From Breznakia blatticola (GTDB lineage: Bacteria; Bacillota_I; Bacilli_A; Erysipelotrichales; Erysipelotrichaceae): a DNA stretch of 30,757 bases. Positions 2,744 through 19,718 of the stretch are shown one piece after another. Position 1 is the first letter of the stretch, and every line of letters begins with the position of its first letter. Made by a program: the position numbers and the translations under genes. Location: contig NZ_SODD01000029.1 of NCBI RefSeq assembly GCF_004365815.1, positions 1 through 30,757 of the forward strand. Reading direction: 5' to 3'. The notes below the pieces were generated by a model, which was not told the DNA's origin, did not search any database, and saw only the letters and a program-made list of their open reading frames with translations.

Positions 2744-3124
2744 TGGTGGAGCTGAGGAGAGTCGAACTCCTGTCCAAAAATAGCCTCGTGTACAAACGTC
2801 TACAGTTTAGTTTGTTTATATAAGAGTTAGATTGAAAACAAACAATCGAGTCTAACAATTTGGTTTATTCAATTTCAAGGATGTAGCTAAACCAAATACA
2901 TCCCCTATCTTCCTAGTTATACGAGTTTAGCAAGTGGAAAGATACACTCACCAACAAGGCTGCAAACCAGTTGTTAGGTTAAATTAAGCAGCGAAAGCTA
3001 CGCTTTGGTTAGCACCAAAGAAGCTTGATAATTTGTTTTTTCCAGTTAAATTGGATTGATGGTTACGCCATCAGCCGACTGCAGTTCATACTAGACATAT
3101 CCCTGTCGAAACCATGACAGCCCC
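2744..3124 (-). ncRNA. ssrA: tmRNA (transfer-messenger RNA)
   Basis: The minus strand begins GGGGCUGUCAUGGUUUCGACAGGG and ends GGACAGGAGUUCGACUCUCCUCAGCUCCACCA. The internal tag frame at 2984-3043 encodes GKNKLSSFFGANQSVAFAA followed by a stop. It lies directly downstream of smpB. Confidence 0.95.
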
Positions 3125-3135: not shown

Positions 3136-3165
3136 AGTATAACACTATCTATATTTCTTTGCCAA
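3136..3165 (-). promoter_or_regulatory. Candidate ssrA promoter inside the 3' end of smpB
   Basis: On the minus strand, TTGGCA (3160-3165) is followed by an 18-nt spacer and TGtTATACT (-10 at 3136-3141). It ends 11 nt before the mature 5' GGGG. An 8-bp hairpin (3131-3151) overlaps it. Confidence 0.45.
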
Positions 3166-3591
3166 CTTTTGCATCATACGACTTGCATCACGATCTTTTT
3201 CCGTTTGACGCTTATCATATAAGTGTTTCCCCTTTGCTAAAGCAATTTCAAGTTTTGCTTTACCATGGTGAATATATAACCGTAGTGGCACAACGGTATA
3301 TCCTTGTAGTTTTACCTTTTGTTGGAGTTTCTTAATCTCATGCTTATGCAATAAGAGTTTTCTTTCTCTAGTCTCATCGTGATTGAAACGATTTCCATAT
3401 TCATATGGAGGAATGTGCATATTTTTAATATATGCTTCACCATCAATAAATGTGATGAAGCTTTCTTTCAATTGCACAGATCCTTTACGGATACTTTTAA
3501 TCTCTGTTCCATGCAAAACAAGGCCAGCTTCAAACGTGTCCTCAATGAAATATTCATGCTTTGCTTTTCGATTGACAGTGATTACTTGCAT
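3145..3591 (-). CDS. smpB: SsrA-binding protein SmpB
   Basis: The 148-aa ORF has the typical NRKAKHEY...GTEIKS...LLLHKHEI sequence. SD AGGAGG is present. It lies adjacent to tmRNA. Confidence 0.95.
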   Translation of the reverse strand: MQVITVNRKAKHEYFIEDTFEAGLVLHGTEIKSIRKGSVQLKESFITFIDGEAYIKNMHIPPYEYGNRFNHDETRERKLLLHKHEIKKLQQKVKLQGYTVVPLRLYIHHGKAKLEIALAKGKHLYDKRQTEKDRDASRMMQKLAKKYR

Positions 3592-3599: not shown

Positions 3600-4742
3600 C
3601 TAGTAAACTACTTCTATTTTATCATTCATGACTTGATTAAGTAAATCAATAAAATACTGACGTTTCATATCCAATCCTTTTTGCGTTAAGGTATGAACAC
3701 TTGCCATTTCATCCGTATAGTCTTTTAATGCATAGACTTTATAGTTATGGAATGCATTGGTGATTTGTGTAATCGTCGGAATGAATTTCACATCTTTGAA
3801 TGTTACTTCTTTTGTTTTGGTGTCATAGCTCATAGTAAAACTTGCTAGACCACCTAACATATTGTCATTTCCATCTTGTGCAGATAGAAAGTTTCCTAAT
3901 GAATAATAGGTTAGTGTTGTATTTCCATTTTTACCAGTGAGAATATCTCCAGTTTGAATGACATGTGGATGTCCACCAATAATAACATCAGCACCTGCAT
4001 CACTTAAAAACTGTGCAAGTTCTTTTTGTTCGTCATTTGGTTCAAAGTGGTATTCTTCACCCCAGTGCATACTTACCATTTGAATATCACTATTTGCATT
4101 TGCTTCTTTCATGTCTTTAGCGATAATCTCTTTATCGATAAGATTGATTAGATATGATTTTCCTTCTGGTAATTCAAAGCCATTCAGTCCATATGTATAA
4201 CTTAGAAATGCGACTTTCACACCTTTGATTTCACGGTATCGAATTCGTGATTCATTTGCATCTACTTGCATTCCTGTTTGCATAAGGTCCAATTGCTTTA
4301 AATAGTTGTATTGATTGATGACACCTTGTTCACCACGATCATAACTATGATTACTTGCTGTATTGATCCAGTTAAATCCAGCACCTTTTACATCATCTAA
4401 GATTTCATATGGACCATTGAATTGTGGATAATGACTTAATCCTAGTTCATCACCAGCTGCAAGCGTTTCTTGGTTGATGTAAGAAATATCCTTTTGGATA
4501 TATGGAAGCATTGGTTCATACATCTCATCAAAGCCATAACTACCATCTGCTTTTTTTGCATAATAGTATACTGCTTCATGGATTAGATTATCACCAACTG
4601 CAGATACACTAATATCCACCACTTTACCTTCTTCTACTGGTTTGTTGGTATCTTTTGATGTATCATCTTTCTTTGTATCTGATGGATTTGAACCACAAGC
4701 AACTAACATACACATGATGACTATGACTACCAATTTTTTCAT
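3600..4742 (-). CDS. CapA-family (PGA_cap metallophosphatase-like) lipoprotein
   Basis: The signal peptide carries the lipobox LVAC-GS. CapA-type motifs are GDNLIH, NTASNHSYDRG, HWGEEY and IIGGHPHVIQ. SD AGGGGGA is present. Confidence 0.8.
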   Translation of the reverse strand: MKKLVVIVIMCMLVACGSNPSDTKKDDTSKDTNKPVEEGKVVDISVSAVGDNLIHEAVYYYAKKADGSYGFDEMYEPMLPYIQKDISYINQETLAAGDELGLSHYPQFNGPYEILDDVKGAGFNWINTASNHSYDRGEQGVINQYNYLKQLDLMQTGMQVDANESRIRYREIKGVKVAFLSYTYGLNGFELPEGKSYLINLIDKEIIAKDMKEANANSDIQMVSMHWGEEYHFEPNDEQKELAQFLSDAGADVIIGGHPHVIQTGDILTGKNGNTTLTYYSLGNFLSAQDGNDNMLGGLASFTMSYDTKTKEVTFKDVKFIPTITQITNAFHNYKVYALKDYTDEMASVHTLTQKGLDMKRQYFIDLLNQVMNDKIEVVY

Positions 4743-4757: not shown

Positions 4758-6854
4758 TTATTTCTTAACAATCACAAAATCAATTTGCTTACGCATCTTG
4801 CTAGCATCTTCGACTTTAATTAAGACTTTTTGTCCCATTTTATAAATTATACCACTTGTTTCTCCAACTAATGCTTTTGCATTTTGATCATAGTGATAAT
4901 AATCATCTTCTAAACTTGTAATATGTACAAGTCCTTCCACTGTATTTTCCAGTTCCACGAATAATCCAAAACGAGTAACTGAAGATATCACACCATGGAA
5001 CTTTTTACCAATATAGCGTTCCATATATTCACATTTTTTCATATCATCTACATCACGTTCTGCTTCAATCGCATTACGTTCCATTTTCGATGTATGTTCA
5101 CTTGCTTCATCTAAGAATGCTTCGTCTTTTTCGATCTGTTTAAGATCAGTTGTCGCCTTAAAGTAGTAACGTTTCAGCATTCGGTGGACAAGTAAATCAG
5201 GATAGCGTCGAATTGGAGACGTAAAGTGTGTATACTCTTTCAATCCCAAACCAAAGTGTCCTAAATTGACCATATCGTAACGTGCTTTTTGCATACTACG
5301 AAGCATATACGTACTTAACACATCAAAATTTTCATTCCCTTTTGCTTGCACTAATAAATCTTGTAATTGCTTTGGATAGATATTTTGTGGATCAGCTTTT
5401 AATGGATATCCTAATGCACTACTTAAGTTGGCAAATTCACGAATCTTCTTAGAATCTGGATTTTCATGCACGCGATACATACTTGGCATTTGCATATGCT
5501 TTGTATGTGAGGCAATACATTCATTTGCGGCAATCATAAAGTCTTCAATCATACGTTCTGCATCACCGCGTTCACGTAATACGATATCTTTGACTCTTCC
5601 TTTTGCATCTACAAGGATTTTGCTTTCCTTCTTATCAAAATCGATTTCTCCAAGTTTTGCTTTACGCTTTTGTAGGATCTTAGATAATTCCAACCCTAAT
5701 GTAATCATCTCTTGTACATCTTTATACTTGCGTGTGACTTTAAGATCACCTGCAAGTATTTTATTTACATCAGTATACGTCATTCGATGACTACTTTTAA
5801 TTACACTCGGTACGATACGATAATCAACAACTTCACCTACTAGGTTGATTTCCATCACACAGCTCATCGTTAATCGATCCACTTTCTCTTGCAAACTACA
5901 TACCCCATTACTTAATAGCTGAGGCAACATTGGCACAACGCGATCTACAACATATACACTTGTTGAACGTTTATATGCTTCTTTATCGATAAGTGAACCT
6001 TCGGTTACATAATGCGATACATCAGCAATATGCACTTGTAGTTCATAATTACGACCTTTCTTTTTGATGTGGATTGCATCATCTAAATCCTTTGCATCTT
6101 CCCCATCAATGGTAATAATGCACGTATCTCTAAAATCCTCGCGTCCTTTTATTTGATCAACTTCCACTGTCTCAGGTATTTGTTGGGCTGCATCAAGCAC
6201 GGCTTTTGGGAAGACTGGCTCAATATCATGCTCAAGTAAAATCGATAGGATATCCACTCCTGGATCATACTTGTATCCAAGAATTTGCAGAATGCGAATG
6301 TACATCGTTTTCCCATACTTTTCAATGAATACTTGTACCTTTGTGTCATTGACCATTTTAAAGGCATCTTTATTCACAATCTTGAATTTTTGTTCAGGCA
6401 TTGGTGTATCTGGTAAAAACCACATCCGACCATCCTTTTTCTTAATGACACCTACTAACGTGTTCTTATTGCGTGAAATAACTTTGATAATTTCACATTC
6501 CACACGACCTTCATTGTCTTGATGAATTCGAGCTAACACCTCATCTCCATCCATAATATTCTTCACTTCATAACGGTTTGCATACACACTTGTGTCTTCA
6601 TTTTCCACAAACCCAAATCCTTTTGGATTCTTTCGTAATATACCTACAAAATATCCAAGTCGTTCCAAAGGAAAATAACGGTCTTTTTCATCAGTAATGA
6701 TGATGTATTCATTTTCCAGTGAATTCAATGCTTTTAGTAAAGCTGTAAAGTCTTCGCTACTCTCTACATGGAAAGCACGTTTAAAGTCCTCTACATTCAT
6801 CCCTTTATACTTTTGGCTTTGCACCGTATCCAGGATCATGTTCATATATTCCAT
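4758..6854 (-). CDS. rnr: Ribonuclease R (3'-5' exoribonuclease, RNB family with C-terminal S1 domain)
   Basis: The 698-aa ORF has cold-shock-like GFGFV, the RNB motifs DGEDAKDLDDAI and SPIRRYPDL, and an S1 domain GLFVEL. It sits in the conserved position upstream of smpB. Confidence 0.95.
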   Translation of the reverse strand: MEYMNMILDTVQSQKYKGMNVEDFKRAFHVESSEDFTALLKALNSLENEYIIITDEKDRYFPLERLGYFVGILRKNPKGFGFVENEDTSVYANRYEVKNIMDGDEVLARIHQDNEGRVECEIIKVISRNKNTLVGVIKKKDGRMWFLPDTPMPEQKFKIVNKDAFKMVNDTKVQVFIEKYGKTMYIRILQILGYKYDPGVDILSILLEHDIEPVFPKAVLDAAQQIPETVEVDQIKGREDFRDTCIITIDGEDAKDLDDAIHIKKKGRNYELQVHIADVSHYVTEGSLIDKEAYKRSTSVYVVDRVVPMLPQLLSNGVCSLQEKVDRLTMSCVMEINLVGEVVDYRIVPSVIKSSHRMTYTDVNKILAGDLKVTRKYKDVQEMITLGLELSKILQKRKAKLGEIDFDKKESKILVDAKGRVKDIVLRERGDAERMIEDFMIAANECIASHTKHMQMPSMYRVHENPDSKKIREFANLSSALGYPLKADPQNIYPKQLQDLLVQAKGNENFDVLSTYMLRSMQKARYDMVNLGHFGLGLKEYTHFTSPIRRYPDLLVHRMLKRYYFKATTDLKQIEKDEAFLDEASEHTSKMERNAIEAERDVDDMKKCEYMERYIGKKFHGVISSVTRFGLFVELENTVEGLVHITSLEDDYYHYDQNAKALVGETSGIIYKMGQKVLIKVEDASKMRKQIDFVIVKK

Positions 6855-6923: not shown

Positions 6924-7154
6924 CTAGAAGATTCTAATCGCAATAACTAACATAAAGAAAATAATACCCATTACAAGCGTAATTCTGGCTATTACCTTCT
7001 CAGGTCCACGTTCTTTCACATTTGCAAATAGGTTCAAACCATCTCCACCTGTAAAAGCACCACTAATTCCATCAGACTTTCCACTTTGTAATAACGAAAG
7101 GACGATAATAGCTCCAGAAACTATCATTAATAATACATCTAACATTTTATACAT
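6924..7154 (-). CDS. secG: Preprotein translocase subunit SecG
   Basis: The 76-aa two-TM ORF has the LLQSGKSDGISGAFTGG signature. SD AGGAGG is present. Confidence 0.9.
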   Translation of the reverse strand: MYKMLDVLLMIVSGAIIVLSLLQSGKSDGISGAFTGGDGLNLFANVKERGPEKVIARITLVMGIIFFMLVIAIRIF

Positions 7155-7175
7155 CCTCCTTTCATATGCCTTACA

Positions 7176-7204
7176 ATTTTAGCATATAATTTAACGTATT
7201 TCAA
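7176..7204 (-). promoter_or_regulatory. Sigma-A-type promoter of secG
   Basis: On the minus strand, TTGAAA (7199-7204) is followed by a 17-nt spacer and TAAAAT (7176-7181). Confidence 0.5.
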
Positions 7205-7300
7205 TAGGCAAGTTGTGAAACGAAATTCTAATATTTTAAAGTAATTCTACCTATCAACAAAAATAATAAATATTTACCCACCATTTCGCAAACTACTTTT

Positions 7301-7857
7301 TTATCCTTCAGGATTGTATAATATATCTTCGTATCCTTGTTCCACATACCATTCCAAGTAATCAAAGAAACCTTCATGACTCAATCCATATTCTCTATAA
7401 TATACGTTTACCCATGCCTATGCTTCTTTCATGCTTTCAATTACTTCTTCATCGCAATCAGTTTCTTCTGTTTCATAATAGTACATGCAATATGTAATAT
7501 CAATATCTTTACTATTCCTAACTTTTGCTTTTTTTCACGAGGTTTATCGAGACTATCAAATATTACAATTCTCTTATCGTCTTTGTACTCAAAACCAATT
7601 GTAATTGTTCTCTCTCCTACCCCTCGTGATAGTCTCCAATAATGTACCCCTAAATCGTTCTTTGAATCGAGAGTAACACTTATTGAAGTTGATCGAGTAT
7701 CAATTGAGTCAACTATGACTCCAGCCTTATCCATTTTCTCTTGGTACTTTTCTCCACTGAATGTTTGATTGCATCCCATCAGCATGCATATCATAACCAA
7801 TACACTCAAGATTCTTTTTTTCTCATATCCTGTTATCCCTCTTCTTACAGCACTCAC
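7301..7857 (-). pseudogene. Decayed copy of the array lipoprotein (at least 3 lesions)
   Basis: Poly(A) after the canonical ATG (7824-7826) is A7 (7815-7821), against A8 in the copy at 8972-8979. The mid-gene tract is A7 (7529-7535), one short of in-frame. An in-frame TAG sits at 7418-7420, where the other copies have GAA. Confidence 0.8.
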
Positions 7858-7876
7858 TTAAGTATATATCCACTTT

Positions 7877-8404
7877 TTATCCTTCAGGATTGTATAATAT
7901 ATCTTCATATCCTTGTTCTACATACCATTCCAAGTAATCAAAGAAACCTTCATGACTCAATCCATATTCTCTATAATATTGGTTTACCCTTGCTTCAGCT
8001 TCCTTCATACTTTCAATTACTTCTTCATCACAATCGGTTTCTTCTGTTTCATAATCATATGTACAATATGTAATATCAATATCTTTACTATTTCTAACTT
8101 TTGCATTTTTTTCACGAGGTTTATCAAGACTATCAAATATTACAATTCTCTTATCGTCTTTGTACTCAAAACCAATCGTAATTGTTCTTTCTCCTACCCC
8201 TTGTGATAATCGATGATATGCTACACCTAAATCAATCTTTGGATCGAGAGTAACACTTATTGAAGTTGATCGAGTATTAATCGAGTCAATTACGACTCCT
8301 GCCTTTTCCATTTTTTCTTGATACTTTTCTCCACTAAATGTTTGATTGCATCCCATCAGCATGCACATTACAACCAATATACTTACGATTCTTTTGTTAC
8401 TCAT
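7877..8404 (-). CDS. Lipoprotein, array paralogue (putative orphan immunity protein)
   Basis: The 175-aa ORF has a signal peptide with lipobox LMGC-NQT and SD GAGGGA. It is homologous to 9036-9563. The mid-gene A tract is interrupted (AAAAAAAT), which keeps the frame. Confidence 0.85.
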   Translation of the reverse strand: MSNKRIVSILVVMCMLMGCNQTFSGEKYQEKMEKAGVVIDSINTRSTSISVTLDPKIDLGVAYHRLSQGVGERTITIGFEYKDDKRIVIFDSLDKPREKNAKVRNSKDIDITYCTYDYETEETDCDEEVIESMKEAEARVNQYYREYGLSHEGFFDYLEWYVEQGYEDILYNPEG

Positions 8405-8455
8405 ACCCTGTTATCCCTCTTCTTACAACATTCACTTGAATGTTTATCCACTTTT

Positions 8456-8984
8456 TTATCCTTCAGGATTGTATTCAATATCTTCGTATCCTTGTTCTAC
8501 ATACCATTCCAAGTAATCAAAGAAACCTTCATGACTCAATCCATATTCTCTATAATATTGGTTTACCCTTGCTTCAGCTTCCTTCATGCTTTCAATTACT
8601 TCTTCATCACAATCAGTTTCTTCTGTTTCATAATAGTACATGCAATATGTCATATTTAAATCTTTGCTATTATAATACTTTGCTTTTTTTTTCATGAGGC
8701 TTATCCAGACTATCAAGTATTACAATTCTTTTATCGTCTTTATACTCAAAACCAATCGTAACTGTTCTCTCTCCTAACCCTCGAGATAATCGATGATATG
8801 CTACACCCAAACCGTTCTTTGAATCGAGTGTAATACTTATGGAAGTTGATCGCGTGTTAATCGCATCAATTACAACTCCAGCTTTATCCATTTTCTCTTG
8901 GTACTTTTCTCCACTGAATGTTTGATTACATCCCATCAGCATACACATTGCAATCAATACACTCAAGATTCTTTTTTTTCTCAT
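8456..8984 (-). pseudogene. Array lipoprotein split by a +1 frameshift in an A9 tract
   Basis: ORFs 8670-8984 (N-terminal half) and 8456-8716 (C-terminal half) overlap at the T9 run at 8684-8692. Removing one A gives a continuous ~175-aa paralogue (..HEKKAKYYNSKDLNMTYC..). Confidence 0.8.
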
Positions 8985-9035
8985 ATCCTGTTATCCCTCT
9001 TCTTACAACATTCACTTAAGTGTATATCCACTTTT

Positions 9036-9563
9036 TTATCCTTCAGGATTGTATTCTATATCTTCGTATCCTTGTTCCACATACCATTCTAAATAATCAA
9101 AGAAACCTTCATGACTCAATCCATATTCTCTATAATATTCGTTTACCCTTGCTTCTGTTTCCTTCATGCTTTTAATTACATCTTCATCACAATCAGTTTC
9201 TTCTGTTTCATAATCATATGTACAATATGTAATATCTATTTTCTTATTATTATATAATTCTGCTTCTTTTTTGCGATAATTATCAATACTATCAAATATC
9301 ACAATATTCTTATCTCTTTCATATATATAATCAATCGAGAATATTTTCTTCCCTATACCTCGCGATAATCGATTATATGATACTCCTAAATCGTTCTTTG
9401 GATCAATCACAATATTTATCGTGGTCGCTCTAGTATTAATTGAAGTAATTTCAATTCCAGCTTTATCCATTTTCTCTTGGTACTTTTCTCCACTAAATGT
9501 TTGATTGCATCCCATCAACATACATATCATAACCAATATACTTAAGATTCTTTTATTTCTCAT
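9036..9563 (-). CDS. Lipoprotein immediately downstream of the LXG gene (putative cognate immunity protein)
   Basis: The 175-aa ORF has lipobox LMGC-NQT. Its start lies 4 nt after the LXG stop, with SD AGGGGAG inside the last LXG codons. Its central ~90 aa diverge from the other three copies while both ends are conserved. Confidence 0.85.
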   Translation of the reverse strand: MRNKRILSILVMICMLMGCNQTFSGEKYQEKMDKAGIEITSINTRATTINIVIDPKNDLGVSYNRLSRGIGKKIFSIDYIYERDKNIVIFDSIDNYRKKEAELYNNKKIDITYCTYDYETEETDCDEDVIKSMKETEARVNEYYREYGLSHEGFFDYLEWYVEQGYEDIEYNPEG

Positions 9564-9567
9564 AGCA

Positions 9568-11301
9568 TTACTCCCCTACTTTCTTAATCATAAAATTTTC
9601 AACTCGTATTACAATCTCTTCAATTTTGTTCACATATTCTAAATCGTTATACAAATCTGCTACATCTACTTTAGGAAGTTTAATATATAATGTCCCTTTC
9701 TCATCTTCAGTATACTCACATCCAGACAAGGAATCGCACAATTTCTTTACTTCACCTTTTTTTTCCATTTTACCCACATTAATTCCATATGTTGCTATTG
9801 CATCTAACTTCTGATTATAATTATCTACTGCTATTCCTGTAGCTTCGCTAAGAATAAACTGTGTCTTATCTTTCACTGTTATACACTTCAGATCAAATTC
9901 ATCTACCAACCCTGAATTAAGTAATACATCTTCATCTGTAAATCTTGAAGTACTTGTATACTTTCCGTTTTTATACTTTTCTATTTGCTTTGAATCAATT
10001 CCATACACATTCATAATATCTGACAATGCAATTGCACCATCTACTATAGTTAGTACTCCTATCTGATCCACAAATCCGACACCATAACTCATTAACCCCA
10101 ATAGGGTATCTACTCGATCCATCATTCGTTTATTTTCTACATAATCGATTATCATTTCTTTTTCTCCTAATCGACCATGTGATTTTACTTCAAATTCCAC
10201 AGCATTGTTATTACCTGAATCTGCAAACGATACTCCAGTAAGTAATCCTTTTCCATCTATCTCGTCATATGAAAATAGCGCTTCTGTTCCTAATATACCT
10301 CTTAGATCAAATACATAATCTAATTGTATGCTCATTTCCAACATTGCTTCTACTTTTACAAATCGTTTCGCATATTTTTCCCATTCGAAATCTTTGTTGT
10401 TTACATTTAGGATTCCTTCTTCTCGTAGTTTATGTTCACTCATAAAAAGTACTAATTGAAATAGTGGTGAAGGTGAATACCCATTCTTCACCTGCGATTT
10501 TTCCGTGTCATATATTTGTGTTATGTCATATGGCACATTATATCCATACGTCATAATTAATGGCATTTCACTTTCATCAATGCGAATGATAATATCCGTG
10601 ATATTTTCGAATTCTTCACGACTAACTTCACCAATATCTTTCTTAAGTATTCTTTCGATATACTTCTTTCCTTCGTCAGTCAATTTACCATCTGCAGTAA
10701 TGTATTTAGATAAATATGCGTCTTTCGACTTTTCTACCCATGATAAATCAACATCTGTAAACTGCAGTTTTTTAGTATCAAAACTTACATCCTTTACTAC
10801 TTCGATTCCGCGCTTTAACTGTTGAATGTATATCTCTGTGTGATCATAATACTTATTTGCTTGTATGTCATAATCATAAAGATCATCTATCTTTCTTCTC
10901 AACACTCTTAAATTATATTGATATAGTTCTTCAATCCCTGCAGTAAACTGCATTGGCATACTTTCCAATTTTCTTAACATTCCGTTTATACTCATAATTA
11001 TCGTCTCAATTTCTTCCTCATTAAGATATTGATCTCCGAGCATACATGTGTATAGATTTTCAGTACTTCGATTTGATCGAATCAGTTCCTCACACAACCA
11101 AATATGAATCTGATATAAATTATAATACACACTTCGTATATAACGTTTATGAGCTGCAAATGCTTGTCCTTGTAATTCTTGATTCACACAAAAAGCATCA
11201 ATCTCTTTCAATACAGATTGACTAGTTTCTTTCATTTCTCTTAATGCACTATTTAAATCACTGAATTGGTTTTGTATCTCTCTAAGATGGAAGGACTTCA
11301 T
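9568..11301 (-). CDS. LXG-domain polymorphic toxin candidate (T7SSb substrate) with an unassigned C-terminal domain
   Basis: The helical N-terminal ~200 aa carry L43-Q-G45 in the context QELQGQAFAAHKRYI. SD GAGGAGG is present. It is preceded by two small overlapping helical ORFs and followed by lipoprotein genes. No signal peptide is visible. Confidence 0.75.
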   Translation of the reverse strand: MKSFHLREIQNQFSDLNSALREMKETSQSVLKEIDAFCVNQELQGQAFAAHKRYIRSVYYNLYQIHIWLCEELIRSNRSTENLYTCMLGDQYLNEEEIETIIMSINGMLRKLESMPMQFTAGIEELYQYNLRVLRRKIDDLYDYDIQANKYYDHTEIYIQQLKRGIEVVKDVSFDTKKLQFTDVDLSWVEKSKDAYLSKYITADGKLTDEGKKYIERILKKDIGEVSREEFENITDIIIRIDESEMPLIMTYGYNVPYDITQIYDTEKSQVKNGYSPSPLFQLVLFMSEHKLREEGILNVNNKDFEWEKYAKRFVKVEAMLEMSIQLDYVFDLRGILGTEALFSYDEIDGKGLLTGVSFADSGNNNAVEFEVKSHGRLGEKEMIIDYVENKRMMDRVDTLLGLMSYGVGFVDQIGVLTIVDGAIALSDIMNVYGIDSKQIEKYKNGKYTSTSRFTDEDVLLNSGLVDEFDLKCITVKDKTQFILSEATGIAVDNYNQKLDAIATYGINVGKMEKKGEVKKLCDSLSGCEYTEDEKGTLYIKLPKVDVADLYNDLEYVNKIEEIVIRVENFMIKKVGE

Positions 11302-11530
11302 TTTCTGTTTCCTCCTCTTTACTTATTTCTCTTTCTATCTCTTCTAACTCTTGACTTACTTTATTCATTGCCCTTTTATGAATATCCAAGCTTTCTTTTG
11401 ACATATTCCCACTGTCAGTCAAAGGAAATATCTCATAAAGATTTGCAAACAATTCATTGCTTTCCTTTAATAATTCTCTTAGTTCTTCAAGTTTCCCTTT
11501 TTGTATATACAACACATCTTTACTATTCAT
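11282..11530 (-). CDS. Small alpha-helical LXG-associated protein (Lap2/DUF3958-like)
   Basis: The 82-aa ORF is rich in charged residues and predicted helical. It shares an ATGA overlap with the upstream ORF and overlaps the LXG start by 20 nt, suggesting translational coupling. Confidence 0.55.
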   Translation of the reverse strand: MNSKDVLYIQKGKLEELRELLKESNELFANLYEIFPLTDSGNMSKESLDIHKRAMNKVSQELEEIEREISKEEETENEVLPS

Positions 11531-11790
11531 TTTCCAATTTCATCTCCAATCTTCGTATCAAGATTTTTAAAGCTTTTGGAAATAGTTTCTACTTTACCCA
11601 TATCTCTTTTAAAGTAATTATGAATACTTTTGTGTATAGTAAAAGTTTCATTTGCTTGAAATGAAATTCTTTCTTGTGTAGATAGAGTAGTAGCAGATGA
11701 ATATTTTACTTGATTGATAGTTGTTTTTACTTTAGCTTGTAGTTTATTAAGAAAACTACTTATATACTTATGATTAACTCGAACTGACAT
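11527..11790 (-). CDS. Small alpha-helical LXG-associated protein (Lap1/DUF3130-like)
   Basis: The 87-aa ORF is the first gene of the operon, with SD GAGGGGA. It contains YFKRD (YxxxD) and FKNLD (FxxxD) near the C-terminus. Confidence 0.55.
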   Translation of the reverse strand: MSVRVNHKYISSFLNKLQAKVKTTINQVKYSSATTLSTQERISFQANETFTIHKSIHNYFKRDMGKVETISKSFKNLDTKIGDEIGK

Positions 11791-11820
11791 TCTTTTCCCC
11801 TCATATCATTTAATTATATA

Positions 11821-11848
11821 ATTATAACAGTTGAGATTTTTTCGTCAA
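11821..11848 (-). promoter_or_regulatory. Strong sigma-A-type promoter of the LXG operon
   Basis: On the minus strand, TTGACG (11843-11848) is followed by a 16-nt spacer and the extended -10 TGtTATAAT (-10 at 11821-11826), about 25 nt upstream of the first SD. Confidence 0.6.
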
Positions 11849-12235
11849 TGTTCGTTTACTTTGCTCAATCATTTCATAACGACTAAAGCGGTAATTTTTA
11901 CAATTGTGAAACTGATGGTTTTTTATCATTTTCTTGATTACGACTCAACGGTAAGAAGAAAAAAGACACAATTGGCATTGCTAAATATAGCACCATAATA
12001 ACATCGTGTGCACCGTTTGCCTGCACGATTTAATAACATGTCAAACGAGTAAAACTTTATGATTCAATACATATTCCTTATAATCACACCTACAACTACA
12101 TCATTATCCTAATCATTTGTCTCTTTTATAACAGCACATACAATGTAACACACTACTATCTATATTATTAAGTTTTACATTTCTCCATATTCTCCAATCA
12201 TATTTATAGTATTTCTTTTTTAGAATATCAGCTAA

Positions 12236-12266
12236 ATATAAAGAAAACGACCACCGAAGTGATCGT
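12236..12266 (-). terminator. Intrinsic terminator of eno
   Basis: On the minus strand, ACGATCAC-TTCG-GTGGTCGT forms 8 pairs with one G-U, followed by TTTTCTTTAT. It lies 20 nt after the eno stop. Confidence 0.65.
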
Positions 12267-12285: not shown

Positions 12286-13662
<1,377 letters not shown>

Positions 13663-13771: not shown

Positions 13772-13800
13772 ATAAAGAAAAAGCAAGACGAATCTTGCTT
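13772..13800 (-). terminator. Intrinsic terminator of the M3 peptidase gene
   Basis: AAGCAAGA (13781-13788) pairs with TCTTGCTT (13793-13800) around the loop CGAA. A U-rich tail follows on the minus strand. It overlaps the stop codon. Confidence 0.65.
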
Positions 13801-15493
13801 ATAGTTTTGTATCATCAATTGTATCGTAATACTGTGAAATCTTATCCATTACATCAGCTAAACATCCTTCTGAGAATGGGTCTTTTAGGTTTGCTTTTGC
13901 GACAATTTGTCTAAATGGTAAAGTACCACCTAACTTACAAATTTCATAGTAATCTGAAAATGCATTTGCATCTTTATTTTGAAGGCGTAGCCAGAATTGT
14001 AAAGCAACTACTTGTGCCAATGTGTAATCTACATAATAGAATGGATCAGAGAAAATATGCGCTTGTCTAAACCACCATGTTCCTTTATCTAAGAAAGGAA
14101 TATCACTATAGTCTTTATGTGGTAAATATTGTTTTTCTAATTTCCTCCACGCTGCTTTTCTTTCAGAAGGCGTCATTTCTGGATTTGCATATACTTCATG
14201 TTGGAAGTGATCCACAGTAATTCCATAAGGTAAGAATTTTATAGCACCGCCTAAATGTGTATAGTAGTATTTTTCTACATCTTCTTCAAAGAATTTAGGC
14301 ATCCAAGGCCATGCAAAGAATTCCATACTCATTGAATGAATTTCCGCGCTTTCATACGTTGGCCAAATACAATCACTAGGTTTAATATTTCTAGATGAAT
14401 ACACTTGGAATGCATGTCCAGCTTCATGAGTTAAAACATCTACATCTCCAGCAGTTCCATTAAAGTTACTAAAGATAAATGGACTTGCATAATCGGAGAT
14501 AAACGTACAGTATCCACCACCACGTTTTCCAGGTTTTGCCACTAGATCAAGTAATTCATTGTTTACCATGTAATCAAAGAATTCACCAGTTGGCTCACTC
14601 AATTCATGATACATATTTTGTGCGATTTTCACCATTTGATCTTTATCATATTTTGGTGTTGGGTTTCCCGTTGTAAATTCATATCCATTGTTGTAAACCG
14701 CAAGTGTATTCACACCTAAACGTTTCTTCTGTGCATCATATAAACGTGTAGCTACAGGTACAACATCGCTAAGAATTTGTTTACGGTACGTTGCAACATC
14801 ATCCGCATTATAATCAAAACGATTCATACGTACATATCCAAGTTCAATAAAATTATTGAATCCTAATTCTTTGGCAATTTTTGCACGAACTTTCACTAAT
14901 CGATCATAGATATCATCGATTTCACTCTCGTGTTCTTCCATATAGCCCCAGTATGCTTTATGCGCACCTTCACGTGTTGCAACATCTGGATCATCCATCT
15001 TTCCACCTAAGCTTGCAAGTGTATATGTTTCACCTTCAAATTCAATTTGCGCTTTTGCAATTAGTTTCTCATATTCACTAACTAAACGGTTTTCTTCTTG
15101 CAGGTCTCCTACGATTTTTTCATCATATGACTTTAATGCATTTTCCGCTTTCCAGAAATAGGTCATTGGAACTTCATTTTCTAGTTCTGGACGGAATGGA
15201 CTATCTAATACAATTTTACTAATCTTAGAGCTAATCCCCATTAAAATTGGAATATGCTCATCCCAAAATGTGTTTTCTGCATCATAAAATGCATCAGTTG
15301 TGTCAATGGTATGACGAACATGCATTAATGAATACATACTTTCTGCATGAGATAAAACTTCATCTGCTTTATCAAATGCTGTTTTAAATACCTCATATGT
15401 ATCTGCATGTTTTAGTTGTTCGACAAGTTTGTCAATTTCACTTTTTAACGTATCAAAATTCGTACGTTCATATTTGTAATCCTTAAATTTCAT
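13799..15493 (-). CDS. M3-family oligoendopeptidase (PepF-like)
   Basis: It carries the zinc motif LTHEAGHAFQ (HExxH) and a downstream glutamate in ESAEIH. The length and layout are typical of PepF/M3B. I call the ATG at 15493 (SD AGAGGTG 5 nt upstream) rather than the GTG at 15502. Confidence 0.85.
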   Translation of the reverse strand: MKFKDYKYERTNFDTLKSEIDKLVEQLKHADTYEVFKTAFDKADEVLSHAESMYSLMHVRHTIDTTDAFYDAENTFWDEHIPILMGISSKISKIVLDSPFRPELENEVPMTYFWKAENALKSYDEKIVGDLQEENRLVSEYEKLIAKAQIEFEGETYTLASLGGKMDDPDVATREGAHKAYWGYMEEHESEIDDIYDRLVKVRAKIAKELGFNNFIELGYVRMNRFDYNADDVATYRKQILSDVVPVATRLYDAQKKRLGVNTLAVYNNGYEFTTGNPTPKYDKDQMVKIAQNMYHELSEPTGEFFDYMVNNELLDLVAKPGKRGGGYCTFISDYASPFIFSNFNGTAGDVDVLTHEAGHAFQVYSSRNIKPSDCIWPTYESAEIHSMSMEFFAWPWMPKFFEEDVEKYYYTHLGGAIKFLPYGITVDHFQHEVYANPEMTPSERKAAWRKLEKQYLPHKDYSDIPFLDKGTWWFRQAHIFSDPFYYVDYTLAQVVALQFWLRLQNKDANAFSDYYEICKLGGTLPFRQIVAKANLKDPFSEGCLADVMDKISQYYDTIDDTKL

Positions 15494-15560
15494 ACATTTC
15501 ACCTCTATGTTCCATTATACTCAATTTTATAGTTGATTTATACAAACTTGCAAAAGAATT

Positions 15561-15588
15561 GAAAAAAGACTACAGCGAACTGTAGTCT
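15561..15588 (-). terminator. Intrinsic terminator closing the opp operon
   Basis: A perfect 9-bp stem AGACTACAG (15567-15575) / CTGTAGTCT (15580-15588) closes the loop CGAA. Six U follow on the minus strand. Confidence 0.75.
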
Positions 15589-15775
15589 ATCCAAACATCC
15601 ATAAAAATAATTGAATGATAATAAAGAAAAAGAATATAACAGCTAAGACAACAGGAATGATGACACTTGCCGCAGCAATCAAGATGGCTAGAAAGTCACC
15701 TTTTTCAAGGTTTGCTTGCTTTCCTTCTTGAATCTCTTTCTTTTTTAAGATATCTCTAATCTTCGGTTTTGACAT
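15587..15775 (-). CDS. Small single-TM membrane protein encoded at the 3' end of the opp operon
   Basis: The 62-aa ORF starts at the ATG at 15775 (SD AGGTGA 5 nt upstream). It has a charged N-terminus followed by the strongly hydrophobic stretch LAILIAAASVIIPVVLAVIFFFFIIIQLFLWMF. It overlaps the oppF 3' end by 20 nt and lies upstream of the operon terminator. Confidence 0.5.
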   Translation of the reverse strand: MSKPKIRDILKKKEIQEGKQANLEKGDFLAILIAAASVIIPVVLAVIFFFFIIIQLFLWMFG

Positions 15776-16784
15776 TAAATTCACCTGCGAAATGACATTT
15801 TACAAAGTGATCTGGAGCGACTTCTTTTTCCACTGGATCAGTTTGCTTACAAATATCTTTTGCAAATGGACAACGAGGATGGAATTTACATCCACTTGGC
15901 AAGTTTACGTTACTTGGAATTTCCCCTTTAATCATCGACATTTCCAAATGTTCATTTGGATCTGGCTTAGGAATCGCTGCCATTAATGACATTGTGTATG
16001 GGTGTTGTGGATTGTTGAAGATTTGATCTTTATCAGCAATTTCCACAATACTTCCTAAGTACATAACTCCAACACGATCACTGATGTGTTTTACAACACT
16101 CAAGTCATGTGAAATAAAGATATAAGAAATCTTTTGTTCTTCTTGTAAATCCATCATTAAGTTCAAGATTTGTGATTGAATCGATACGTCAAGCGCACTA
16201 ACTGGTTCATCACAAATAATGAATGTTGGATCAAGTGCTAATGAACGTGCAATCCCAATACGTTGACGTTGCCCACCAGAAAATTGGTGAGGGTAACGAT
16301 AACAGTAGTAAGGTGGAAGACCACATTTTTTCATTAGTTCAAGAACGTGTTCTTTTAGTTCATTTCCACGTTTAAAGTATCCATGAGCAACTAAAGGTTC
16401 ACTAAGAATATTATAAATATTCATTCTAGGGTTTAATGAAGAATATGGATCTTGAAAAATGAATTGCATATCTTCACGAAGTTTACGCATTTCTTTTCTT
16501 GATTTTGCCAGTACATTTTCACCTTTGAAAATAACTTCTCCGCTTGTTGGTTCATGAAGACGGATAATCGCACGACCTAGCGTAGATTTCCCACATCCTG
16601 ATTCACCTACAAGTCCTAACGTTTCACCTTCGTATAGTCTGAAGCTTACACCATCAACCGCTTTTACGAATTGTTTATTGAAACGTCCTTTTCCAACAGG
16701 GAAATGTTTTGTTAAGTTCTTAACTTCCAAAATGACTTTTTTGCCATTTGGTCCAACTTGAACATCTTTAACTTGTTCGCTCAT
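15756..16784 (-). CDS. oppF: Oligopeptide ABC transporter ATP-binding protein OppF
   Basis: Walker [10 protein letters not shown], the signature FSGGQRQR and Walker B IICDEP are present. The Cys-rich C-terminal oligopeptide-ABC extension reads GCKFHPRCPF...C. Confidence 0.9.
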   Translation of the reverse strand: MSEQVKDVQVGPNGKKVILEVKNLTKHFPVGKGRFNKQFVKAVDGVSFRLYEGETLGLVGESGCGKSTLGRAIIRLHEPTSGEVIFKGENVLAKSRKEMRKLREDMQFIFQDPYSSLNPRMNIYNILSEPLVAHGYFKRGNELKEHVLELMKKCGLPPYYCYRYPHQFSGGQRQRIGIARSLALDPTFIICDEPVSALDVSIQSQILNLMMDLQEEQKISYIFISHDLSVVKHISDRVGVMYLGSIVEIADKDQIFNNPQHPYTMSLMAAIPKPDPNEHLEMSMIKGEIPSNVNLPSGCKFHPRCPFAKDICKQTDPVEKEVAPDHFVKCHFAGEFNVKTED

Positions 16785-17800
16785 TATTTCCCCTCCTTCT
16801 TATTTAAATCAACATCTTCATATAAGAAACAACTTACATGGTGACGTGATTTGATTTTACATGTTGGAGGTTGTGATTCACGACATTTATCCATTACATT
16901 TGGACAACGGTCTGCGAAGTAACATCCTTTTGGTAAATATAAAGAGTTTGGTACAGAACCTTCGATCGTTGCTAAACGACCTCCTTCTGTATTAAGTGAA
17001 GGCATACTTGCCATTAACCCTTTTGTATATGGGTGTTTAGGGTTTGCAAACAATTCCTTAACTGGAGCTGTTTCCACTACTTTCCCTGCATACATAACGT
17101 TAACGTTATCTGCCATTTGCGCAACAACCCCAAGGTCATGCGTAATTAACATAATTGAAGTTCCAAGTTTCTTTTTCAAATCATTCATCAATGAAAGAAT
17201 TTGTGCTTGGATTGTAACATCTAATGCCGTTGTTGGCTCATCAGCAATCAACAGTTTTGGGTTACATGCAAGAGCCATCGCGATCATTACACGTTGACGC
17301 ATTCCCCCAGACAGTTGGTGAGGATAGTCCGTTACAACTTTTTCAGGACGTGCAATACCAACAAGTGTTAGCATTTCAACAGCACGTGCCTTAGCTTCTT
17401 CTTTTGTTACATCTTCGTGAAGCAATACAGCTTCCATAATTTGATCCCCAATTTTAAATACTGGGTTCAGTGAAGTCATTGGTTCTTGGAAAATCATTGA
17501 AATTTCATTTCCACGAATGTCACGAATTTCTTCATCAGACATTCCTACCATGTTTTTTCCTTCGTATTCGACAATACTTCCATCTACAATTTTCCCTGGT
17601 TCATCAACTAAACCAAGAATAGACATTGCAGTTACACTTTTTCCACATCCAGATTCACCAACGATTGCTAGTGTTTCGTTTTCATACATACGGAAGTTGT
17701 TTCCATCAACTGCCTTTGAAACTCCTTTTTCTGTGTAGAAATATACTTTTAGATCTCTAACATCTAATAATTTCTTGTTTCTAACTAATTCTGCCATCAT
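16784..17800 (-). CDS. oppD: Oligopeptide ABC transporter ATP-binding protein OppD
   Basis: Walker A GESGCGKS, the signature LSGGMRQR and Walker [12 protein letters not shown] are present. The C-terminal Cys motif reads GCYFADRCP. The second ATG at 17797 is an equally possible start. Confidence 0.9.
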
Positions 17801-17806
17801 ACACCT

Positions 17807-18727
17807 CTATCGTACATCTTTAGGATCAAGCGCGTCACGTAGACCCTCTCCAACTAGGTTAATGGAAATAACCGTTAAGAAACACATAACACCTGCTGGC
17901 ATCCATGTCCAAGGCATGTTTTGGAAACGTGAAATATCACGTGCAAGTTGCATTAAGTTTCCCCATGTCGGTGTTGGTTCTGTAACTCCCATCCCTAAGA
18001 ATGATAGTCCAGCTTCTGTTAAGATTGCACTTGCCATCGATAATGTAGCATTTACAATTACAATTGATAGTACGTTTGGAATCAAGTGTTTAAAGATTTT
18101 TGAGAAATCGCTTAACCCTAATGATTCACAAGCTTGCATAAATTCTTGTTCACGAAGTGATAAGATTTGCCCACGTACCAAACGCGCAAGCGTTGGCCAT
18201 GATAATAACCCAATCAAGAATGAAACAACAATCATTTTAATATTACCTTCTACCCACATCATCGTTGCTCCTAAGGCAATGATCATTGGTGTAAATGGTA
18301 ATGAATAAATAATTTCAGTAAAACGCATCAATAAGTTGTCAATTAGACCACCATAGTATCCTGCTGCTCCACCAATAATTACCCCTAATAATACAGTAAT
18401 TACAGCTGATACAACCCCTACTAAGATTGAAATACGTCCCCCTAGCAACAAACGGAATAGAACATCACGTCCTTGTTCATCTGTTCCTAGTAAGTGTGAT
18501 AAACTTGGTCCTTGCCCTTTAGCAGCGAAATCGAAATCATTAACGCTTTGTCCCATAATAATCGGTCCAAAAATAACCGCAAATACAATAATCACAAATA
18601 AAATAAGTCCTGCCATCGCAATTTTGTTTTTCTTAAATTTGTTCCACGCGATTCGCCACGGTCCAAGGACTTCTTGATCTTCTTCTCTTACAACCACATT
18701 TGGTTCAATAACTTGATCTTTACTCAT
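17807..18727 (-). CDS. oppC: Oligopeptide ABC transporter permease OppC
   Basis: This is a BPD-type permease with the EAA-loop region ESLGLSDFSKIFKHLIPN. I call the ATG at 18727 (SD AAGGGGGA) rather than the ORF maximum at 18781, which would overlap oppB. Confidence 0.88.
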   Translation of the reverse strand: MSKDQVIEPNVVVREEDQEVLGPWRIAWNKFKKNKIAMAGLILFVIIVFAVIFGPIIMGQSVNDFDFAAKGQGPSLSHLLGTDEQGRDVLFRLLLGGRISILVGVVSAVITVLLGVIIGGAAGYYGGLIDNLLMRFTEIIYSLPFTPMIIALGATMMWVEGNIKMIVVSFLIGLLSWPTLARLVRGQILSLREQEFMQACESLGLSDFSKIFKHLIPNVLSIVIVNATLSMASAILTEAGLSFLGMGVTEPTPTWGNLMQLARDISRFQNMPWTWMPAGVMCFLTVISINLVGEGLRDALDPKDVR

Positions 18728-18737
18728 ATGTCCCCCT

Positions 18738-19718
18738 TTACTCCGTTTTGATTCGTGGATCGACCACAGAATATAATACATCAGATAATAAGTTACCTAA
18801 TAACATCAATACAGCAGAGAATAATAACACAGCTGTTGTAACACTTAAGTCACGTGAGTTAATAGCTTCAATTAAAATCCATCCTAAACCTGGCCACAAG
18901 AAAACCGTTTCCAAAATCATTGCTCCACTGAATAGTGAAGGAATGTATGAACCAAGTAAAGTAACTAAAGGAATGAGGGCATTCTTAAAGGCATGACGGT
19001 AAATCACGACTTTTTCTTTCAATCCTTTCGCACGTGCTGTACGAATGTAATCTTGATTAATTACATCAATCATCGCATTACGAACATATCTCGATAACGA
19101 TGAGAAACTACCGAACGCAAGTACAATCACTGGAATTACCATGTGACTAGCAACATCGGCTAAGTTTGCAAAAATATTTGGATATCCAAAGGCTGCTTGA
19201 ATTGGATCACGCATACCGTTCATTGGTAATAATCCAAGTTGCAACGATAAGAAGAATACGAGAACTAACCCAAAGAAAAAGGTTGGTACTGATATTCCAA
19301 ATAAAGAGAATACGGTCCAAAAGTTATCAAATTTGGAGTATTTCTTTGTTGCTTGTTTGATTCCAATAGGAATGGAAACCAAAACTGCTAAAATAAGTGA
19401 AATTACATTTAATAAGAATGTATTCCAAATGTATTCACCAATTAATTCGGTAACTGGTTTTTTGTATTTAATTGACTCTCCTAAGTCACCTTGTACTAAA
19501 CGCCCTGCCCAACGAATGTATTGCTCATGCATCGGTCCGTTTAACCCCAACTGTTCACGGATTACTTCTTTTTGTTCAGGCGTAACTTTCGACCCCATAC
19601 CTAAATATGCGTTAACAGGATCCCCCGGCATACTTCGGACGGTCGCAAAAATCAATATTGAAATGATGAATATAACGGGAATCATATTCAACAAACGTTT
19701 CAATATGTACTTTATCAT
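18738..19718 (-). CDS. oppB: Oligopeptide ABC transporter permease OppB
   Basis: The N-terminus MIKYILKRLL...IFATVRSMPGDP is typical. The EAA-loop region reads RTARAKGLKEKVVIYRHAFKNALIP. SD AAGGAGG is present. Confidence 0.9.
   Translation of the reverse strand: MIKYILKRLLNMIPVIFIISILIFATVRSMPGDPVNAYLGMGSKVTPEQKEVIREQLGLNGPMHEQYIRWAGRLVQGDLGESIKYKKPVTELIGEYIWNTFLLNVISLILAVLVSIPIGIKQATKKYSKFDNFWTVFSLFGISVPTFFFGLVLVFFLSLQLGLLPMNGMRDPIQAAFGYPNIFANLADVASHMVIPVIVLAFGSFSSLSRYVRNAMIDVINQDYIRTARAKGLKEKVVIYRHAFKNALIPLVTLLGSYIPSLFSGAMILETVFLWPGLGWILIEAINSRDLSVTTAVLLFSAVLMLLGNLLSDVLYSVVDPRIKTE

Follow-up and report, generated by a model that had tools for sequence, protein, structure and literature searches.

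A strain-variable locus between eno and secG of Breznakia blatticola that probably encodes a T7SSb-type LXG toxin and its immunity proteins

TelC of Streptococcus intermedius is a T7SSb LXG lipid II phosphatase that is accompanied by LapC1-LapC2 and TipC (PMC9600955; PMC6193138). Its locus is ordered as Lap1, Lap2, the LXG toxin, and then immunity paralogues, and the FxxxD motif carried by Lap1 is needed for LXG export (PMC9600955). The operon contains several immunity paralogues, and the immunity protein is tethered outside the membrane (PMC9600955; PMC6193138). Extracellular immunity is also found for TslA, a T7SS phospholipase of Staphylococcus aureus acting outside the cytoplasm, whose immunity lipoprotein, TilA, occurs in tandem arrays of variable copy number that include diverged copies (PMC10730906). 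EsxX, TspA, and TelE, in turn, are LXG toxins that depolarise the membrane; their toxicity is exerted from its outer side, and their immunity is membrane-located (PMC12744356).

The locus presented here lies in a window of 30,757 nucleotides, the whole stretch of DNA that was analysed, and shares with the TelC locus its gene order and with both TelC/TipC and TslA/TilA the multiple, externally tethered proteins encoded next to the toxin gene. Its host, Breznakia blatticola, is a cockroach-gut bacterium. We consider it probable that the locus constitutes a toxin-immunity island of T7SSb type, mobile and variable among strains, that is built around an LXG polymorphic toxin. All genes of the region are on the minus strand, with the following flanks and limits:

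2744-3124, minus strand: tmRNA, flank on the secG side
3145-3591, minus strand: smpB, flank on the secG side
PGA_cap gene, minus strand: flank on the secG side
4758-6854, minus strand: rnr, flank on the secG side
6924-7154, minus strand: secG, flank on the opposite side from eno
7223-12236, minus strand: whole island, 5,014 bp, missing from the empty-site contig (L005)
11863-12236, minus strand: leader of 374 bp, in the insert and outside the conserved module
12269-12244, minus strand: eno terminator, flank
12286-13599, minus strand: eno, housekeeping flank

The first-pass annotation had placed a self-contained block of about 5 kb among these housekeeping genes, all of which were located, and had proposed to compare the eno-secG interval across strains. 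In a near-identical strain (L005), this interval has no counterpart of the 5,014 bp: eno is 100% identical to the window up to position 12237, and after a further 13 nt the contig resumes with secG-rnr from window position 7222 at 98% identity. Given this empty site, the block between eno and secG is a discrete, strain-variable insert. The empty-site contig sets its ends at 7223-12236, compared with the 7205-12235 given earlier. The 374-bp leader is absent from the empty site, is not common to the module locus of a second Breznakia genome (L001; GCA_029893515.1), and had no match in an Rfam search. In that second genome, the module, with an identical promoter, is set between amylase and Cys/Met-metabolism genes, and a paralogous module (EDD63_10121/10120) is present elsewhere in the same B. 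blatticola genome. The module itself comprises the following features:

11821-11848, minus strand: module promoter (TTGACG, 16 nt, TG-n-TATAAT); the region has no better site
11527-11790, minus strand: ORF87, Lap1-like (DUF3130-like) candidate helper of 87 aa, from its FxxxD motif and orthologue matches to DUF3130
11557-11571, minus strand: FxxxD motif of ORF87, F74-K-N-L-D78
11282-11530, minus strand: ORF82, small charged protein of 82 aa in the Lap2 position, with an ATGA overlap with ORF87
9568-11301, minus strand: putative LXG polymorphic toxin of 577 aa without signal peptide, from homologues and predicted structure
10777-11301, minus strand: predicted LXG targeting domain, aa 1-175, from AlphaFold2 (AF2) helices, Foldseek, and the LxG motif
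11167-11175, minus strand: LxG motif, L43-Q44-G45
9568-10746, minus strand: C-terminal region, aa ~186-577, presumed toxin, common only to P0001, P0003, and P0004
9652-9816, minus strand: hypervariable toxin patch, aa 496-550, from a three-allele comparison and dS
9036-9563, minus strand: lipoprotein copy 1, 175 aa, lipobox LMGC, type I, intact, presumed cognate immunity protein
8456-8984, minus strand: lipoprotein copy 2, type II, disrupted by an additional A
7877-8404, minus strand: lipoprotein copy 3, 175 aa, type II, intact
7301-7826, minus strand: lipoprotein copy 4, type II, decayed pseudogene

The earlier reading of the operon, with its own near-consensus promoter, two translationally coupled small ORFs, and lipoprotein genes starting 4 nt after the 577-aa ORF, agrees with the coordinates. 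Of 12 consensus positions, the promoter has 11. It is 100% conserved in the second Breznakia genome, to which homology begins at window position 11862, 14 nt ahead of the -35 hexamer. ORF87 and ORF82 overlap by 4 nt (ATGA), ORF82 and the 577-aa ORF by 20 nt, and the first lipoprotein ATG follows the toxin stop codon by 4 nt, a spacing that suggests translational coupling. Judging from the sequence, one sigma-70-type promoter would drive the module as a single operon.

The 577-aa protein had been described as having an LxG-type N-terminus and no signal peptide, and both the motif and a hydrophilic N-terminus were found. A direct match to the Pfam LXG profile (PF04740), which had been put forward as a check, was sub-threshold (18.4 bits, E 0.002; cut-off 26.5 bits), but homologues and structure support the assignment. 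An exhaustive search returned 74 homologues, 70 of which match aa 1-200 only; PF04740 is matched by 38 of the 40 top aligned homologues, whose C-termini carry HNH, deaminase, EndoU, or TNT domains, and, above the cut-off, by a full-length homologue (P0004; 32.7 bits). The nearest relatives are named 'T7SS effector LXG polymorphic toxin' by NCBI; of 40 relatives, all have L43 and at least 90% have G45. AF2 predicts long helices in the N-terminal region (block-mean pLDDT ~76-95, mostly >85), and the top PDB matches of this model in Foldseek are chains 8gmh_A and 8gmh_B of the TelA-LXG/LapA3/LapA4 complex. By its homologues and predicted structure, the 577-aa protein is therefore a divergent LXG protein. 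Its nearest N-terminal relatives, the LXG toxins of the Bacillus cereus group and Listeria (25-28% identity over aa 4-200), likewise have polymorphic C-termini; these are nucleases, deaminases, and TNT domains with cytoplasmic targets, to which the Breznakia C-terminus is unrelated.

The DUF3130, TIGR04197, and DUF3958 profiles, suggested earlier as a test of the two small ORFs, matched none of the window ORFs. ORF87 nevertheless appears Lap1-like: F74 and D78 of its FxxxD motif are invariant across five positional orthologues, those in L003 and L004 give sub-threshold DUF3130 matches (E 9e-5 and 1.4e-3), and hhalign returned E 0.0048 across the motif region. The Lap1 motif DxxTxxxGN is absent from ORF87, in contrast to the TelC locus, as is a DUF3958 signal from the ORF in the Lap2 position. 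ORF82 has no sequence similarity to DUF3958 or to the Lap2-position ORFs of related loci, and would be Lap2-like by position only; a genuine DUF3958 gene stands upstream of P0002, the closest outside LXG relative. Both ORFs are 95% identical to their counterparts in L001, with a dN/dS of 0.5 for ORF87.

No T7SS apparatus genes were found in the window, as had been stated before, or in the related loci compared. Alternatively, the module could be an LXG cassette, orphaned or in decay, whose product has ceased to be secreted and which is kept only as a recombination reservoir or immunity island. Two routes lead to this state, namely a genome without a working T7SSb, or divergent Lap and LXG proteins that no longer engage one. 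The sub-threshold LXG domain fits such decay, as do the length of ORF82, ~25-40 aa below that of the Lap2-position ORFs in L003, L004, and L002, and the loss of two of the four lipoprotein copies to pseudogenes. Against this, three loci in two genomes all keep intact versions of ORF87, ORF82, and the 577-aa gene, dN/dS is 0.1-0.5 throughout the module, the FxxxD and LxG motifs are retained, the near-consensus promoter is fully conserved, and the lipoprotein copy adjoining the toxin gene is intact. We therefore regard an orphan cassette as unlikely.

The first-pass annotation had judged the toxin and its partners to be unlike any described pair, and the C-terminal region indeed has no match in Pfam, NCBIfam, or PDB, and no recognisable catalytic motif or known fold; neither TelC nor any PDB entry matches it in sequence or fold. 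Among 1.84 billion representatives, these ~390 aa have only two distant relatives (P0003 and P0004). The AF2 model shows a confident helical bundle in the first half of the region and pLDDT <50 over aa 329-435. A single Gly-rich segment of moderate hydrophobicity (aa ~400-435; Kyte-Doolittle hydropathy of at most 1.68) is reminiscent of EsxX, TspA, and TelE, but there is no regular GxxxG glycine zipper; the presumed immunity protein is a lipoprotein rather than a polytopic membrane protein, and no cytoplasmic ExiAB-like neutraliser is encoded in the island.

Sequence variation is concentrated at the distal end of the gene. In a comparison of three Breznakia alleles, the bin aa 501-525 contains 11-15 differences in 25 residues, and the bins before aa 500 contain at most five, mostly 0-2. 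Synonymous divergence jumps at aa 496 (dS 0.44 over aa 496-550 vs 0.06-0.08 upstream) and stays high through the lipoprotein genes, so that the patch is likely a recombination breakpoint. The 577-aa protein might instead be a non-toxic T7SS-type substrate, such as a surface or nutrient-acquisition factor, with the lipoproteins as its surface docking partners. While a C-terminal region without a toxin-family match or obvious catalytic residues, starting with a bundle that is not enzyme-like, would suit this role, polymorphic toxin systems have this architecture and gene order, the module is duplicated and variable in presence and location, and an allele-specific hypervariable tip next to diverged, partly decayed paralogues bears the marks of conflict systems. 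A non-toxic role is, in our view, very improbable.

Downstream of the toxin gene, four lipoprotein genes had been annotated in tandem. The array does consist of four ~580-bp repeats, 85-90% identical, of which only copies 1 and 3 are intact. Copy 2 has a +1 frameshift in an A9 run (8692-8684), and deletion of one A restores a 175-aa ORF; in copy 4, two A-runs (A7 at 7821-7815 and 7535-7529) are each one A short, and there is a TAG at 7420-7418. Downstream of the P0004 gene, a 189-aa lipoprotein is encoded that is collinear with those of Breznakia (hhalign E 1.6e-4 over 155 columns), and the P0003 gene (L003) is followed by two tandem paralogues with an N-terminal TM anchor, as in TipC; the similarity of these anchored proteins to the Breznakia lipoproteins is not significant. 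The latter also differ from known immunity proteins, as TipC does not match them, and neither DUF576 (TilA) nor the lipase family of TslA, which has the reverse domain order with its LXG-like domain at the C-terminus, matches island proteins.

In three diverged lineages, the toxin gene thus adjoins a downstream membrane-tethered gene, and we infer that the lipoproteins are immunity proteins for the toxin. Could the toxin instead be directed at the insect host or at the interior of target cells, the lipoproteins being co-encoded surface receptors, adhesins, or antigens? The cytoplasm is where the majority of characterised LXG toxins act, nucleases and NADases among them; domains of this kind occur on the relatives, and the first accounts of S. 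aureus DUF576 lipoproteins presented them as host-interaction factors (PMC10730906). However, no candidate cytoplasmic immunity ORF was found in the module, the adjacency of toxin and tethered protein persists across the three lineages, the close spacing of the two genes suggests coupling, and divergence rises together in the toxin 3' end and the lipoprotein genes, as expected of a toxin-immunity cassette. An intracellular or host target consequently seems improbable to us.

Taken together, gene order, FxxxD motif, LXG homologues, and downstream tethered proteins bear out the Lap1-Lap2-LXG toxin-immunity layout proposed at first, and a secreted toxin with surface immunity remains our preferred reading. 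In the cytoplasm, ORF87 and ORF82 would dock onto the long LXG helices, and the T7SS ATPase EssC would recognise the three-protein complex, allowing export without a Sec signal. As in TelC/TipC and TslA/TilA, the site of toxin action is probably external to the membrane, given that every known relative of the domain, both distant ones included, is followed by an exported, externally tethered protein (lipoprotein or N-terminal TM anchor) and that the module has no cytoplasmic immunity gene; aa ~186-577 may thus attack related bacteria nearby, at the outer face of their membrane or at their cell envelope. The lipoproteins would bind and neutralise the incoming toxin at the cell surface, and diverged paralogues of two sequence types may widen protection to the toxin alleles of kin strains, which would differ mainly in aa 496-550, a 3' segment that is swapped and varies together with the immunity genes. 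The island would thereby represent a known type of kit, composed of an LXG toxin, two helpers, and surface antidotes, with a toxic domain and antidotes that match nothing described.

The block between eno and secG is a real, strain-variable LXG toxin-immunity cassette whose toxin domain and immunity family match nothing described. An exact SecG protein match led to a 3-kb contig of a different sequencing run (L005), in which eno is 100% identical up to window 12237 and is followed, after 13 nt, by secG-rnr at 98% identity from window 7222 onward. Since eno is joined to secG in this contig, one strain has the 5,014 bp at 7223-12236 and another lacks them; the block is thus a strain-variable insertion. 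The first-pass annotation, which was read from the sequence alone, had placed a self-contained LXG toxin-immunity block at 7205-12235 and proposed to compare the eno-secG interval across strains. That comparison bears out the insertion and shows the predicted limits to be nearly exact, and homologues, fold, gene order and the empty site together make the core reading essentially right. The features of the insert and its flanks, whose genes are all on the minus strand, are as follows in the order of transcription.

12286-13599, minus strand: eno, with a stem-loop terminator at 12269-12244
11863-12236: leader of 374 bp, non-coding, within the insert and outside the conserved module
11848-11821, minus strand: promoter-like site, TTGACG, 16 nt, TG-extended TATAAT
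11527-11790, minus strand: ORF87, with a 4-nt ATGA overlap with ORF82
11282-11530, minus strand: ORF82, with overlaps of 4 nt (with ORF87) and 20 nt (with the LXG gene)
9568-11301, minus strand: 577-aa ORF (toxin), with a 20-nt overlap with ORF82
6924-7154, minus strand: secG, followed by rnr, the PGA_cap gene, smpB and tmRNA
3600-4742: PGA_cap gene (poly-gamma-glutamate capsule synthesis-like), between rnr and smpB, interrupting the otherwise conserved secG-rnr-smpB-ssrA order

The same module occurs in another Breznakia assembly, GCA_029893515.1 (L001), flanked there by an alpha-amylase gene and a Cys/Met-metabolism gene and containing two lipoprotein genes. Homology between the two copies (92%) has sharp borders; it begins at window 11862, which is 14 nt before the -35 hexamer, and ends at about 7293. 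The module promoter is identical in both; it is the best such site in the region and agrees with the consensus at 11/12 positions, in line with the near-consensus promoter that had been predicted. The leader is absent from the L001 copy and gave no Rfam match, no convincing ORF and no match to anything. The B. blatticola genome itself has a second copy on a different contig (locus EDD63_10119-10123), where EDD63_10121/10120 encode a 94%-identical paralogue and its own lipoprotein. We found no integrase and no PADLOC match to a defence system. Terminal repeats or a target-site duplication were considered at the island borders, and comparison of the window with L001 and L005 revealed no obvious example of either.

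Sequence and a structural model identify the 577-aa protein as a divergent member of the LXG proteins. Its direct score against the Pfam LXG family (PF04740) is 18.4 bits (E 0.002, aa 3-82), under the gathering cut-off of 26.5, and it has no NCBIfam match; the original LXG assignment is therefore not carried by this score, but it stands on homologues, motif and fold. When 1.84 billion representatives were searched exhaustively with HMMER, 74 matches were returned, 70 of which cover aa 1-200 only, in proteins of varied total length. PF04740 is matched by 38 of the top 40 aligned homologues, and C-termini among these 40 are of HNH, EndoU, deaminase, colicin-DNase or TNT type. Such unrelated C-termini on homologues of one N-terminus are the hallmark of polymorphic toxins. 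With 32.7 bits, the full-length homologue P0004 exceeds the LXG cut-off, and PF04740 is also carried by P0002, the closest outside LXG relative. Among named relatives, the nearest come from Listeria and the Bacillus cereus group and bear the NCBI name 'T7SS effector LXG polymorphic toxin'. The LxG motif itself corresponds to L43-Q44-G45; L43 is invariant and G45 present in at least 90% of a 40-sequence alignment. An AF2 model places five long helices at aa 6-38, 46-88, 95-113, 121-150 and 153-171, with a block-mean pLDDT of about 76-95 (mostly above 85). Its best Foldseek matches in the PDB are 8gmh_A and 8gmh_B (probability 1.0, target-normalised TM-score 0.60-0.63, E 0.01), which belong to the TelA-LXG/LapA3/LapA4 complex and share the elongated helical LXG fold of the model. 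Among PHROGs, matches are confined to the LXG N-terminus (window 10777-11301; phrog_24213, E 4e-15; phrog_22940, E 2e-11, both annotated without a function); toxins of this LXG subtype are therefore found on phage or prophage genomes as well.

LXG toxins of the T7SSb are preceded by small helper proteins, Lap1 (DUF3130/TIGR04197) and Lap2 (DUF3958), and a Lap1-Lap2-LXG layout had been proposed here. The two small ORFs are indeed translationally coupled through their ATGA overlap, and the gene order holds. Neither ORF87 nor ORF82 matched DUF3130/TIGR04197 or DUF3958 in the HMM searches that the first-pass annotation had suggested, and Pfam and NCBIfam scans gave noise only. The loci of P0002 and of the distant toxin homologues P0003 and P0004 (L002, L003 and L004) therefore served as bridges to classify them. 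In L002, the LXG gene comes after a 110-aa ORF and an authentic DUF3958 gene (E 5e-13). Against DUF3130, for which the cut-off is 25, the small ORFs in first position before P0003 and P0004 reach 23.1 bits (E 9e-5) and 19.2 bits (E 1.4e-3), respectively. Alignment of ORF87 to the profile of its L003/L004 orthologues (hhalign, E 0.0048) falls exactly on the FxxxD region, F74-K-N-L-D78, in which F and D are invariant in 5/5 aligned first-position ORFs. FxxxD near the end of Lap1 helix 2 is required for LXG export (Klein et al., PMC9600955). The Lap1 side of the layout is thus supported by FxxxD, but not by the second Lap1 motif, DxxTxxxGN, of which an alignment of positional orthologues shows only the Thr (T34) conserved in ORF87. 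ORF82 is shorter than its positional counterparts; it has no Pfam match, BLASTP against the DUF3958 protein of L002 was empty, and hhalign against Lap2-position ORFs found no detectable similarity (E 0.35). A small ORF between the lap1 position and the LXG gene is present in L001-L004 as well, and position, coupling and conservation make ORF82 a candidate for the Lap2 role.

Beyond the LXG domain, the toxin is very rare: aa ~200-577 are common only to P0001, P0003 and P0004, which form three 50%-identity clusters among 1.84 billion representatives, and a profile search with the toxin family alignment recovered no further members. Sequence and profile searches of this region against Pfam, NCBIfam and the PDB found nothing and Foldseek gave no credible match, in agreement with the earlier view that the toxin domain resembles none described. 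PDB sequence searches with toxin, toxin-family, Lap-like and lipoprotein profiles were likewise empty, and LapA3, LapA4, TelC and TipC were not recovered by them. The AF2 model contains a confident helical bundle (aa 187-330), a stretch of very low confidence (aa 329-435) and a moderately confident alpha/beta unit (aa 470-576). The sole hydrophobic segment of the C-terminal region falls in the poorly modelled part, with a maximum Kyte-Doolittle value of 1.68 in a 19-residue window from aa 408; its glycines are irregular and a conserved DxxD lies just upstream. The region has no invariant His, Cys, Lys or Arg. As the putative activity we slightly favour, on weak grounds, damage to the membrane rather than an enzyme acting on a precursor of the envelope. 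A glycine-zipper pore-former was considered and dropped, as Gly spacing is irregular in aa 402-434, and so was a disulfide-activated toxin, as the Cys pair of the hypervariable patch is conserved in neither P0003 nor P0004.

Downstream of the toxin gene lie four tandem repeats of ~580 bp with mutual identities of 85-90%. The ATG of lipoprotein copy 1 is 4 nt past the toxin stop codon, as had been reported, with a GGGGAG ribosome-binding site within the last toxin codons. The four repeats had been read as four lipoprotein genes; the tandem arrangement stands, but copies 2 and 4 are disrupted. Copies 1 and 3 are intact (175 aa each) and 100% identical to EDD63_12914 and EDD63_12911. Copy 2 is one A too long in a single A-run (A9 at 8692-8684), and taking out one A in silico gives back a complete 175-aa lipoprotein. 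In copy 4, two A-runs are each one A short, and there is a TAG codon as well. All frameshifts in the two copies sit in poly-A runs, at 8684-8692 (A9) and at 7815-7821 and 7529-7535 (A7 each), where A8 is in frame. Copy 2, which is otherwise intact, could be switched on by slipped-strand phase variation or by transcriptional slippage.

The Breznakia lipoproteins start with a classic lipoprotein signal (MRNKRILSILVMICMLMG-C) and belong to a family that has only seven members in 5.8 billion clusters, every one of them from Breznakia. They have no match in Pfam, NCBIfam or the PDB and fall into no described immunity family, TipC and DUF576 included, so that the partners, too, are as unlike known ones as had been suspected; an AF2 model (pLDDT 40) was too low in confidence to use. 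In L004, the gene of P0004 is followed by that of a 189-aa lipoprotein (...IVTG-C) collinear with the Breznakia lipoproteins (hhalign E 1.6e-4, 155 columns, probability 50%). In L003, P0003 is followed by two tandem paralogues of 163/164 aa with an N-terminal membrane anchor (an uncleaved hydrophobic N-terminus), whose sequence similarity to the Breznakia lipoproteins is not significant. A gene for an exported protein downstream of the toxin is therefore kept in three lineages. All three have an externally exposed, membrane-tethered partner and none has a cytoplasmic candidate, which speaks for a toxin that would act outside the membrane. Both forms of the partner have precedents: immunity to TelC is provided by TM-anchored TipC paralogues (PMC6193138) and immunity to TslA by TilA lipoprotein arrays (PMC10730906).

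Substitutions among the three Breznakia toxin alleles are concentrated at aa 500-550. Between the window and L001 (9165-10553), dS is 0.06-0.08 for toxin aa 1-495 and 0.44 for aa 496-550 (window 9652-9816), a jump of about six-fold at codon ~496, and it is still 0.3-0.5 in the lipoprotein genes (window 7301-9563); dN/dS is below 1 everywhere. A dS jump that is sustained downstream looks like a recombination breakpoint within the toxin gene, and the toxin tip and the immunity genes appear to travel together, as expected of a polymorphic toxin cassette. The lipoproteins themselves are of two types, set apart by aa 37-112: copy 1, P0077 and the second L001 gene belong to type I, and copies 2-4 and the first L001 gene to type II.

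On the secG side, the stretch that separates the last lipoprotein repeat from secG (window 7155-7300) contains no predicted terminator, so that transcripts started at the island promoter may run on into secG-rnr. A secG promoter-like site (7204-7176) is kept in the filled and the empty site alike. Elsewhere in the window, a compact three-gene unit adjoins the tmRNA gene, the sole Rfam match, and encodes an ArsR-family regulator, an ArsP_1 permease and a small thioredoxin-fold protein (945-2625). A dense peptide-catabolism neighbourhood at 13799-26767 comprises an M3 oligoendopeptidase, a five-gene Opp-type ABC transporter, an M32 carboxypeptidase, an S9 prolyl oligopeptidase and a C69 dipeptidase. 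A 549-aa DDE transposase (PF01609) is encoded at 28876-30525, about 230 bp from the contig end, and is probably the cause of the assembly break.

T7SSb apparatus genes (essC, essB, esaA, esxA) are found neither in the window, as already noted in the first-pass annotation, nor in loci L001-L006, and our literature search on Breznakia and on T7SS of Erysipelotrichaceae returned nothing informative. The architecture of the island is of the well-understood polymorphic-toxin type and not a new kind of system. What may be new lies in its parts: we propose tentatively, and with somewhat less than even confidence, that the C-terminal ~390 aa represent an undescribed, envelope-acting T7SS toxin fold in Erysipelotrichia, neutralised at the surface by a new lipoprotein family whose effective copy number is modulated by slippage in poly-A runs.

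To our knowledge, T7SS-mediated antagonism is unstudied in Erysipelotrichia, including insect-gut Breznakia, and few LXG toxins are known to act outside the cytoplasm. Examples of the latter are TelC (PMC6193138), TslA (PMC10730906) and the membrane-depolarising EsxX, TspA and TelE (PMC12744356). The island adds a candidate to this group, with an unmatched toxin domain and immunity family, and a natural pair of an island-positive strain and an island-negative one, the latter of the kind found in run SRR35247381, is there for competition experiments. If our reading is true, T7SS-type antagonism would extend to an insect-gut lineage of Erysipelotrichia.
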